From a virus (Duplodnaviria > Heunggongvirae > Uroviricota > Caudoviricetes): a DNA stretch of 21,290 bases. The notes under the pieces are model-generated. The model searched no databases, was not told the DNA's origin, and was given only the letters and a program-made list of their open reading frames with translations. Position numbers and translations under genes: made by a program. Below, piece after piece: positions 17,633-19,651 of the stretch. Position 1 is the stretch's first letter. Every line of letters starts with the position of its first letter. The stretch is from the IMG/VR virus record IMGVR_UViG_2657244961_000005; one strand, 5' to 3'.

Positions 17633-19651
17633 ATGATCAGAACCGGGAATGACAACCGTCGGTATGTGTATCCGGAGCTTAAGTTGCACGCCATTGGGTG
17701 GGTTAAGCATAAATGTATTCCTGGTGCTAAATGGCCCGAAATTCAGGCAGAGATGCGCATCTGGAAAAAACGTCGCGAAGGTGAACGCAAGGAAACCGGA
17801 AAATACACGTCTGTTGTTGATCTCGCCCGCGCCAGAACCAATCAACAGTACACTGAAAATTCAACAGGAAAAATCAGCCCGGTCATTGCTGCCATTCATC
17901 GCGAATACAAGCAGACATGGAAAACACTGGATGACGAACTGGCCTACGCTCTCTGGCCTGGTGATGTGGATGCCGGAAACATTGACGGCAGCATCCATCG
18001 CTGGGCAAAAAAAGAAGTTATCGACAACGACCGCGAAGACTGGAAGCGTATCTCGGCATCAATGCGCAAACAGCCTGATGCCCTTCGCTACGACCGCCAG
18101 ACTATTTTTGGCCTTGTCCGTGAGCGTCCGATCGACATTCACAAAGATCCCATAGCACTGAACAAATATATCTGCGAATACCTGACGACAAAGGGCGTGT
18201 TTGAGAATGAAGAAACAGACCTGGGCACTGTTGATGTTCTCCAGTCATCAGAAACACAAACTGATGCAGTGGAAACTGAGGTATCTGATATCCCAAAAAA
18301 TGAAACCGCGCCGGAAGCTGAACCATCTGTAGAGCGTGAGGGGCCGTTCTATTTCCTCTTCGCAGATAAGGACGGAGAAAAATACGGTCGCGCAAACAAA
18401 CTTTCTGGTCTGGATAAGGCACTGGCTGCTGGCGCCACTGAAATCACAAAAGAAGAATATTTTGCCCGAAAAAATGGCACATACACGGGCTTACCGCAAA
18501 ATGTAGATACCGCTGAAGATTCAGAACAACCAGAGCCGATAAAAGTTACCGCTGACGAAGTAAACAAAATTATGCAGGCAGCCAATATCAGCCAGCCTGA
18601 CGCCGATGAACTGCTTGCAGTATCACGTGGTGAATTTGTTGAAGGGATTAGCGACCCGAATGATCCGAAATGGATTAAGGGGATCCAGACCCGCGATTCT
18701 GTGAACCAGAACCAGCAAGAAACGGAACAGAACGACCAGAAAGCGGAACAAAACAGCCCAAATACGCAACAAAACGAGCCAGAAACGAAACAACCTGAAC
18801 CAGTAGTGCAACAGGAACCGGAAAAGATCTGCACCGCCTGCGGTCAGAGCGGTGGCGGCAACTGCCCTGATTGTGGTGCGGTGATGGGTGACGCAACATA
18901 CCAGGAAATATTCGATGGAGAGAATCAGCCTGAAGTTCAGGAAAATGATCCGGAGGAAATGGAAGGCACTGCGCATCAGCACAAGGAGAACACTGGCGGC
19001 AATCAGCATCATGCCAGCGATAGTGAAACTGGCGAGGCGTCAGATCCCTTAATTAAGGCAAACGGTCATCATAATCTCACATCCACCAGCAGAGCGGGGA
19101 TTCATCTGATGATCGACCTTGAAACCATGGGAAAAAATCCCGATGCCCCGATTATCTCAATAGGTGCAATATTTTTCGATCCGCAAACCGGAGATATGGG
19201 ACCGGAATTTAGTAAGACTATCGATCTGGAAACTGCTGGCGGAGTCATTGATCGGGACACCATTAAATGGTGGCTTAAACAATCACGCGAAGCGCAATCT
19301 GCCATTATGACCGATGAAATCCCGTTAGATGATGCACTGTTACAATTGCGGGAATTTATCGACGAAAACTCCGGTGAATTTTTTGTTCATGTCTGGGGAA
19401 ATGGAGCCAACTTCGACAACACGATTTTGCGCCGTTCATACGAACGGCAGGAGATCCCCTGCCCGTGGCGTTACTACAACGATCGCGATGTACGCACAAT
19501 CGTTGAGCTGGGGAAAGCCATAGACTTCGATGCCAGAACGGCTATTCCATTCGAAGGTGAGCGCCATAATGCACTTGATGACGCCCGTTACCAGGCAAAA
19601 TACGTTTCAGTTATCTGGCAAAAACTGATCCCGAGTCAGGCTGATTCTTAA
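17633..19651 (+). CDS. Chimeric exonuclease: RecE-like N-terminal/middle region, Q/E-rich linker, Cys4 motif, C-terminal DEDDh (DnaQ-like) 3'-5' exonuclease domain
   Basis: 672 aa from ATG at 17633 (AAGG SD); segment [31 protein letters not shown] resembles RecE as I recall it; [16 protein letters not shown] motif; exo motifs [15 protein letters not shown] and HNALDDARY. Confidence 0.75.
   Translation: [672 protein letters not shown]

Follow-up and report, generated by a model that had tools for sequence, protein, structure and literature searches.

The window analysed here, a 21,290-nucleotide stretch of viral DNA (IMG/VR record IMGVR_UViG_2657244961_000005), represents a cryptic prophage of the lambdoid kind, inserted between ydfJ and rspB at the Qin site. 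Near its right end, an open reading frame (ORF) of 691 codons runs on the plus strand from an ATG at position 17576 to a stop at position 19651. A preliminary description, starting from the internal ATG at position 17633, had read 17633–19651 as coding for an exonuclease with a RecE-like N-terminal region and a DnaQ-type catalytic domain. The corresponding frame is fully open and codes for 672 amino acids (aa), of which 661 are native. Homology to the 823-aa exonuclease of related phages begins at 17666/17667, after the ATG, both in BLASTP alignments with this protein and in a comparison with the Escherichia coli KSC9 genome. The 11 codons from 17633 to 17665, including the ATG, constitute a fortuitous leader, which is the antisense of a cro remnant and is foreign to the native protein. 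The segment 17666–19651 corresponds to codons 163–823 and the stop codon of a prophage exonuclease gene of the Tritos/HannyBb type, an orthologue of ydfE. The window protein aligned with residues 163–823 of the HannyBb exonuclease at 94% aa identity (BLASTP), and it matched only positions 163–822 of the 823 positions of the phrog_2082 profile. In genomes of the EC12 type, PGAP annotated window positions 17666–19651 as a pseudogene "missing N-terminus". On these alignments, 17633–19651 is the last 80% of an 823-aa gene and not a complete gene.

The strain KSC9 carries the undeleted allele at the identical chromosomal site, beside rspB. In a base-by-base comparison over 3.65 kb, the window corresponded to KSC9 minus exactly 3,244 bp, with no mismatch in window positions 16000–17670 and none in 17667–19651. 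The left flank is identical through position 17670 and the right flank from position 17667, and the junction consists of a 4-bp microhomology, TGTA (17667–17670), common to both flanks. In KSC9, genes for YdaT and for a Cro/CI-family regulator occupy the minus strand and are followed on the plus strand by a LexA-family repressor gene, ydfA, ydfB, ydfC, dicB, ydfD, the 823-aa exonuclease gene, xis and int. The deletion took away the 5' part of cro, the repressor gene, ydfA, ydfB, ydfC, dicB, ydfD and codons 1–162 of the exonuclease gene. Judging from the gene layout, the divergent early promoters would have been removed as well. The position before xis and int, that of the last early-left gene, is still recognizable by its downstream half (xis, int, rspB), which was kept, whereas the upstream half present in KSC9 was deleted. 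The junction was carried by 16 of 5426 complete E. coli genomes, each copy being 100% identical to the query, which indicates that the deletion is recent and clonal. Among the matches listed, E. coli EC12 and at least 14 further genomes matched window positions 17000–20000 at 100% identity. We propose that a 3,244-bp microhomology-mediated deletion cut the parent exonuclease gene, and that 17633–19651 would be what remains of the gene that closes the early-left (dicB) operon in a Qin-type lambdoid prophage. The Qin prophage of strain K-12 holds the complementary fragment (residues 1–256, against 163–823 in the window): its pseudogene ydfE codes for residues 1–256 of the same protein, with 100% identity to HannyBb, and is interrupted by IS2.

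The fold was modelled with AlphaFold2 (AF2) on P0102, a full-length relative that has 98% identity with the window protein in the DEDDh domain. The model suggests a modular protein, with an N-terminus of the YdfE type, central domains homologous to RecE, a disordered linker and a DexA-like DEDDh exonuclease domain. Residues 1–205 are predicted to form a folded alpha/beta and helical region of the YdfE type, with a predicted local distance difference test score (pLDDT) mostly above 90. A helical domain at residues 240–340 (pLDDT 93–98), encoded in the window by 17897–18199 on the plus strand, like all parts of the gene, is where the alignment with RecE begins (RecE 278 to about 340). It is followed by a small beta/alpha domain at residues 385–435 (pLDDT 94–97; window 18332–18484), with strands at 390–396, 399–405 and 419–422. 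Two helices at residues 458–498 (pLDDT 60–77) end in a conserved peptide of the SDP.DPKW type. The linker at residues 499–636, which includes a motif of four cysteines (Cys4), is predicted to be disordered (pLDDT mostly below 57), and the DEDDh domain occupies residues 640–823 (pLDDT mostly 64–93). The deletion breakpoint falls inside a confidently predicted helical subdomain (residues 101–205, pLDDT mostly above 90) and is straddled by helices 158–161, 165–178 and 185–205. Residues 163–205, encoded by 17666–17794, would be the surviving C-terminal helices of the N-terminal folded region.

The C-terminal part of the gene, from 19097 to 19648, codes for a DEDDh 3'-5' exonuclease domain of the Rv2179c-like/DexA type, in agreement with the preliminary description, which had located such a domain in the last ~180 aa. 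The Pfam family PF16473 (Rv2179c-like 3'-5' exoribonuclease) matched aa 491–662 of 672 (E 3.5e-66, 222.7 bits against a cutoff of 27) and covered positions 2–177 of the 177 of the profile. When the domain was aligned by MAFFT with T4 DexA and the 189-aa EcD type, the catalytic pentad was invariant, the DexA residues being D7, E9, D119, H186 and D191, as listed in PMC12153337. In the window protein these are the D and E of MIDLET (Exo I, codons 19115–19117 and 19121–19123), the D of GNGANFD (Exo II, 19415–19417), and the H and second D of HNALDD (Exo III, H-x4-D, 19565–19567 and 19580–19582). The sole sequence match of the whole protein in the PDB was DexA (8KEL, E 4.5e-6, phmmer). DexA was also the top Foldseek match of the P0102 model (E 8e-7, template modelling score TM(target) 0.64–0.71), ahead of RNase T, Orn/oligoribonucleases, REXO2 and Cap18. 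The modelled domain has the RNase H-like alpha/beta fold of DnaQ-type exonucleases. The window domain was 38% identical (E 2e-38) to the stand-alone 189-aa EcD-type exonuclease, a family that we identified from the primers in the supplement of PMC12153337 and a scan of viral contigs. Judged from its residues, the domain is a catalytically complete one of the DexA type. EcD, which begins with MIDTET and has A78, was found as a 189-aa protein of the PF16473 type on six IMG/VR viral or prophage contigs, and this defence gene, published as "bacterial", appears to be carried by phages.

Upstream of the catalytic domain, the resemblance to RecE noted in the preliminary description was real, but it concerned the central part of the protein and not its N-terminus. 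The NCBIfam model PRK09709 (RecE; NF007259) aligned aa 95–475 with profile positions 271–603 of 877 (E 2e-80), and its score of 271 bits did not reach the equivalog cutoff of 1269. BLASTP aligned the window protein with residues 278–650 of K-12 RecE at 35% identity. An alignment over RecE 278–592 (E 1e-61 for HannyBb against RecE) was near-identical in its last ~150 residues, which take in SRGEFV(D/E), the conserved ten-residue peptide, (V/I)KGIQTRD and the Cys4 motif, and at the DNA level the RecE-like stretch had 76% identity over 453 nt (blastn). The similarity stops at RecE residue ~592, just short of the RecE catalytic domain. The first ~100 residues of the window protein were of the YdfE type and not RecE-like. 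The N-terminal domain of RecE (Exonuc_VIII, PF06630) was absent from the window protein and from the intact 823-aa form, and the PD-(D/E)XK nuclease domain (PF12684/DUF3799), which spans residues 615–850 of K-12 RecE, was found neither in the window protein nor in HannyBb. The peptide that the preliminary description had ascribed to the non-catalytic part of RecE does have a counterpart in K-12 RecE: it is a conserved 25-residue linear motif with an SDP.DPKW core, encoded by 18623–18697. The Q/E-rich linker and the Cys4 motif described next to it were also found. The linker (18704–18826) is a low-complexity segment rich in Q, E, N and P and predicted to be disordered, from its composition and from AF2 pLDDT values below 50 over aa 499–548 and 567–636. 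The Cys4 motif, C-x2-C-x8-C-x2-C (18830–18877), is common with RecE, whose counterpart reads CNACGQTGGDNCPDCG. As a recognised zinc ribbon this motif was not established, with E 0.11 for Pfam DZR and an AF2 pLDDT of ~47–56.

To place this composition in its family, 185 representatives of the non-catalytic region (window 17666–19105) were collected at E ≤ 1e-3 among 1.84 billion clusters at 50% identity, and architectures were counted over the 62 of them that reach 400 aa or more. An N-terminus of the RecE type (PF06630) was present in 33 of the 62, a PD-(D/E)XK head (DUF3799) in 18 and a DEDDh head in 12. The Cys4 motif was found in eight representatives, whereas the SDP.DPKW core of the longer pattern LAA.RGE[FY]V.GISDP.DPKW was found in 23, covering all three head types. 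Mixed combinations were observed. In P0126, domain-wise BLAST showed RecE residues 1–280 at 99–100% identity, the middle region and a DEDDh head at 98%, and in P0141 an N-terminus of the YdfE type and the middle region are joined to a PD-(D/E)XK head. N-termini of two types and no fewer than three classes of C-terminal head (PD-(D/E)XK, DEDDh and a possible Rad52-like one) occur on this scaffold, the third class having no PDB match with either a single sequence or a profile. Compared with hhalign, the YdfE-type and RecE-type N-termini gave a weak, co-linear alignment (24.8% probability, E 8e-4). The domain swap proposed in the preliminary description is real in the evolutionary sense, RecE similarity ending before the catalytic domain and chimeras being found in the family, but it is old and combinatorial, neither local nor new. 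A different fusion was seen in P0174 (703 aa), in which RecE residues 1–280 and the middle region continue in frame into a RecT domain (Pfam RecT gave E 1.2e-42 in one member of the set), as if a deletion had joined recE to recT with loss of the RecE nuclease domain.

The gene and its architecture were already known and annotated. At megablast-level similarity, the DEDDh-coding segment (19106–19651) was present in 4069 of the 5426 complete E. coli genomes (~75%), often in several copies and in up to 7 per genome; its annotation in these genomes reads "exonuclease" or "3'-5' exoribonuclease domain-containing protein". Protein databases hold thousands of near-identical entries with precomputed PF27430, PF27432 and PF16473 domains; PF27430 occurs only on homologues that retain the N-terminus and is missing from those shorter than ~745 aa. 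The 823-aa gene is carried by phages HannyBb, PhiR42_1, Tritos and mEp460, and is called "exonuclease" in Tritos, HannyBb and mEp460; the Tritos copy has 96.7% nucleotide identity to the window gene. The Tritos/HannyBb/mEp460 exonuclease (PHROG 2082) is the same gene, with the same slot (last early-left gene, before xis-int), domain order and DEDDh head. It differs by its full length of 823 aa, the window copy being without codons 1–162 and the promoter region. A 2025 survey of lambdoid recombination modules reported DnaQ-like 3'-5' nucleases in early-left operons, often beside int (PMC12315714). It defined a "Tritos" class with a nuclease, many Chi sites, no annealase and no anti-RecBCD gene, and "RecE-2" proteins without a nuclease domain (PMC12315714).

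The parent protein was most likely a metal-dependent 3'-5' DNA exonuclease, by analogy with its relatives. We propose that it would act as a Mg2+-dependent 3'-to-5' exonuclease on DNA 3' ends, because DexA and EcD are DNases, because the gene occupies a recombination slot in the early-left operon, and because the body of the protein is held in common with RecE. Both T4 DexA (8KEL) and EcD (HREX; Kang et al. 2025) are 3'-5' DNA exonucleases (PMC12153337) with the same DEDDh fold and an identical catalytic pentad. They consist of a single domain, whereas in the prophage protein, with its 823 aa and several domains, the DEDDh domain forms the C-terminal head. RecE of the Rac prophage shares with the parent protein the region 278–592, the SDP.DPKW-type motif, an acidic or Q-rich linker, the Cys4 motif and a slot near xis/int in the early-left operon. 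In contrast, RecE has a PD-(D/E)XK nuclease, PF06630 and a RecT partner, none of which accompanies the window protein, and the polarity expected of the latter is the opposite one, 3'-5'. The RecE-type body would serve as a presumed non-catalytic scaffold or targeting module. A plausible role, in Chi-rich phages that lack Gam, would be the trimming of 3' tails so that the ends become RecBCD substrates.

The preferred reading of the locus is that of a deletion remnant of a prophage 3'-5' exonuclease gene, likely silent, and we give it a probability of about 0.85. The opposite view, that of a complete gene for a newly seen chimera in which the RecE 5'-3' nuclease has been replaced by a 3'-5' exonuclease, is very improbable. 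It does justice to the facts that both components are real and that the switch occurs exactly at the boundary between the RecE linker and catalytic domain. However, it is refuted as to completeness by the truncated 5' end of the gene, and as to novelty by an abundant architecture (4069 of 5426 genomes) that has its own phrog_2082 profile and Pfam annotation, occurs in named phages and involves DnaQ-type nucleases already published. The remnant itself is most likely silent or non-functional, with its catalytic domain untouched, because its start arose by chance in antisense cro sequence, because what is left of the native protein begins inside a folded domain, and because no promoter was recognizable: a scan of the plus strand from 17100 to 20000 found no sigma-70-like site. 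Several observations weigh against silence. The 661 native codons are open, an AAGG lies ~6 nt upstream of the ATG at 17633, and read-through transcripts could conceivably be translated at a low level. The stand-alone homologue of the catalytic domain, EcD, is active alone (PMC12153337), and by analogy with such homologues the truncated protein could have kept nuclease activity. The zero differences from KSC9 mean that the deletion is too recent for decay to reveal whether the remnant is used. On these grounds one could suppose that the truncated ORF is still expressed, from the ATG at 17633 or from an internal start, as a working 3'-5' exonuclease. Its open frame of 661 native and 11 additional codons behind a Shine–Dalgarno-like AAGG, its intact pentad, and the activity and protective effect of the 189-aa EcD expressed from a plasmid (PMC12153337) would all fit. 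We consider this improbable, since the native promoter region was deleted, the sequence upstream is the antisense of leftward genes without any promoter-like site on the plus strand, and the breakpoint lies in a folded domain of what PGAP calls a pseudogene. Furthermore, the presence of the junction in 16 of 5426 genomes, all copies being 100% identical, gives no sign of selection. As for an internal start before MIDLET, only a weak GGGG was found ~9 nt upstream.

Two other activities can be considered for the intact protein, and both seem unlikely to a similar degree. It may have been an anti-phage nuclease of the HREX type, selectively degrading, as EcD does, the 5-hydroxymethylcytosine (5hmC) DNA of T-even phages and protecting the lysogen. 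The 38% identity to the EcD type, the position of DexA as the closest solved structure and the protection against T4 conferred by EcD (PMC12153337) point in this direction, and DexA and EcD have only recently been linked to the discrimination of modified DNA. However, in the MAFFT alignment the DexA residues W152 and D169, proposed to recognise 5hmC, are matched by Y and K in the window protein, and by W and E in the EcD type, with gaps around D169 that make this part of the alignment uncertain. Moreover, the gene comes last in the early-left operon, which is repressed, and such a slot would be unusual for defence genes expressed in a lysogen; the window copy is truncated and promoterless. The alternative activity is that of an RNA exonuclease acting on host or phage RNA. 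It finds an argument in the names, which also weigh against our own choice of substrate: Pfam and PGAP call the domain after an exoribonuclease, the best Pfam family being named after Rv2179c of M. tuberculosis, and the DNA substrate of the subfamily is assigned by analogy. RNase T and the oligoribonucleases also come after DexA in the Foldseek list. The profile match to the Rv2179c-like family (PF16473) is full-length and its founding member is a mycobacterial RNase, but DexA and EcD, the characterised proteins nearest to the prophage domain in sequence and structure, are DNases (PMC12153337). The position in a recombination module beside xis/int and the scaffold held in common with the DNA nuclease RecE likewise argue for DNA.

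The genes around the junction complete the picture. On the minus strand, the left neighbour of the deletion is a gene of the YdaT family in the cII position (17179–17604; Pfam YdaT_toxin, E 6e-10), annotated by PGAP in EC12 and KSC9 (WP_000693867.1). It is followed, also on the minus strand, by the 3' remnant (~27 codons, 17588–17670) of the Cro/CI-family regulator gene, whose 5' part was deleted and which PGAP calls a pseudogene "missing N-terminus" in EC12. The gene is intact in KSC9, where it measures 243 nt, and is identical to the window up to position 17670. As in KSC9, the first 17 nt of the YdaT gene (17588–17604) are shared with the 3' end of the cro-like remnant. Because the cro promoter region was deleted, YdaT and the downstream genes of the replication region have probably lost their native promoter too. 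On the plus strand, the excisionase gene lies directly downstream of the exonuclease remnant (19724–19975; PGAP WP_000005552.1). The tyrosine integrase gene occupies the end of the prophage beside rspB, at the Qin attachment site (20010–21290; PGAP WP_000876976.1, 1281 nt; ORF 19995–21290). In intact relatives, dicB and ydfD are located upstream of the exonuclease gene. No recT, bet or erf gene was found beside the exonuclease ORF in the window or in the intact relatives examined, phages included, which bears out the absence of a recT/bet-like partner stated in the preliminary description.

Several other features of the prophage were recorded. The Chi sequence (GCTGGTGG) occurs at 10 sites between 5252 and 19090, nine of them on the minus strand, against 0.48 expected from shuffled sequences; this richness fits the Tritos class of lambdoid phages (PMC12315714). 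Between the lysis region and that of the Q antiterminator, two prophage tRNA genes are located on the minus strand at 9233–9309 and 9418–9493. One is a tRNA-Arg(tct), and the other, with a cat anticodon, is called Met by ARAGORN and Ile (lysidine type) by PGAP. Between the lysis genes and the tRNAs, two adjoining minus-strand ORFs (7261–8235) are annotated as TolA C-terminal domain or TolA-like, and are possible moron genes. An IS3-family element of ~1.3 kb lies between the lysozyme gene and ydfR in EC12, and the corresponding window region, ~6101–6445 as deduced from coordinate offsets, is without it; on these offsets, the window would derive from a strain related to EC12 and not from EC12 itself.

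Altogether, the observations of the preliminary description were confirmed and its interpretation was partly supported: the composition of the protein and the domain swap were right, whereas completeness, the "N-terminal" label and novelty were not. For the locus, the result is mainly a correction, a seemingly complete and unusual nuclease gene being a truncated copy already flagged as a pseudogene. The interest lies rather in the family, which provides the sole recombination-type gene of the Chi-rich lambdoid phages of the Tritos class and whose body, being common with RecE, bears on the role of the RecE N-terminal region. That region is dispensable for nuclease activity and its role is unexplained (reviews; PMC11611040). 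Further study might be worthwhile only for the interchangeable heads on a RecE-type scaffold. We tentatively suggest, as an idea that is still rather doubtful, that in lambdoid phages of enterobacteria the RecE-type body may act as a general platform on which interchangeable heads that process DNA ends are docked. The platform would consist of an N-terminus of the YdfE or RecE type, the helical domain, the beta/alpha domain and the linker with its near-invariant SDP.DPKW-type peptide. The heads would be a PD-(D/E)XK 5'-3' exonuclease, a DEDDh 3'-5' exonuclease or a possible Rad52-like annealase, and the conserved peptide could tether any of them to one common host or phage partner. The window would add only a broken copy to this set. 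If the suggestion is true, the "nuclease-only" and "RecE-2" recombination modules of lambdoid phages would be variants of one system, and the N-terminal two-thirds of RecE would be given a testable function.

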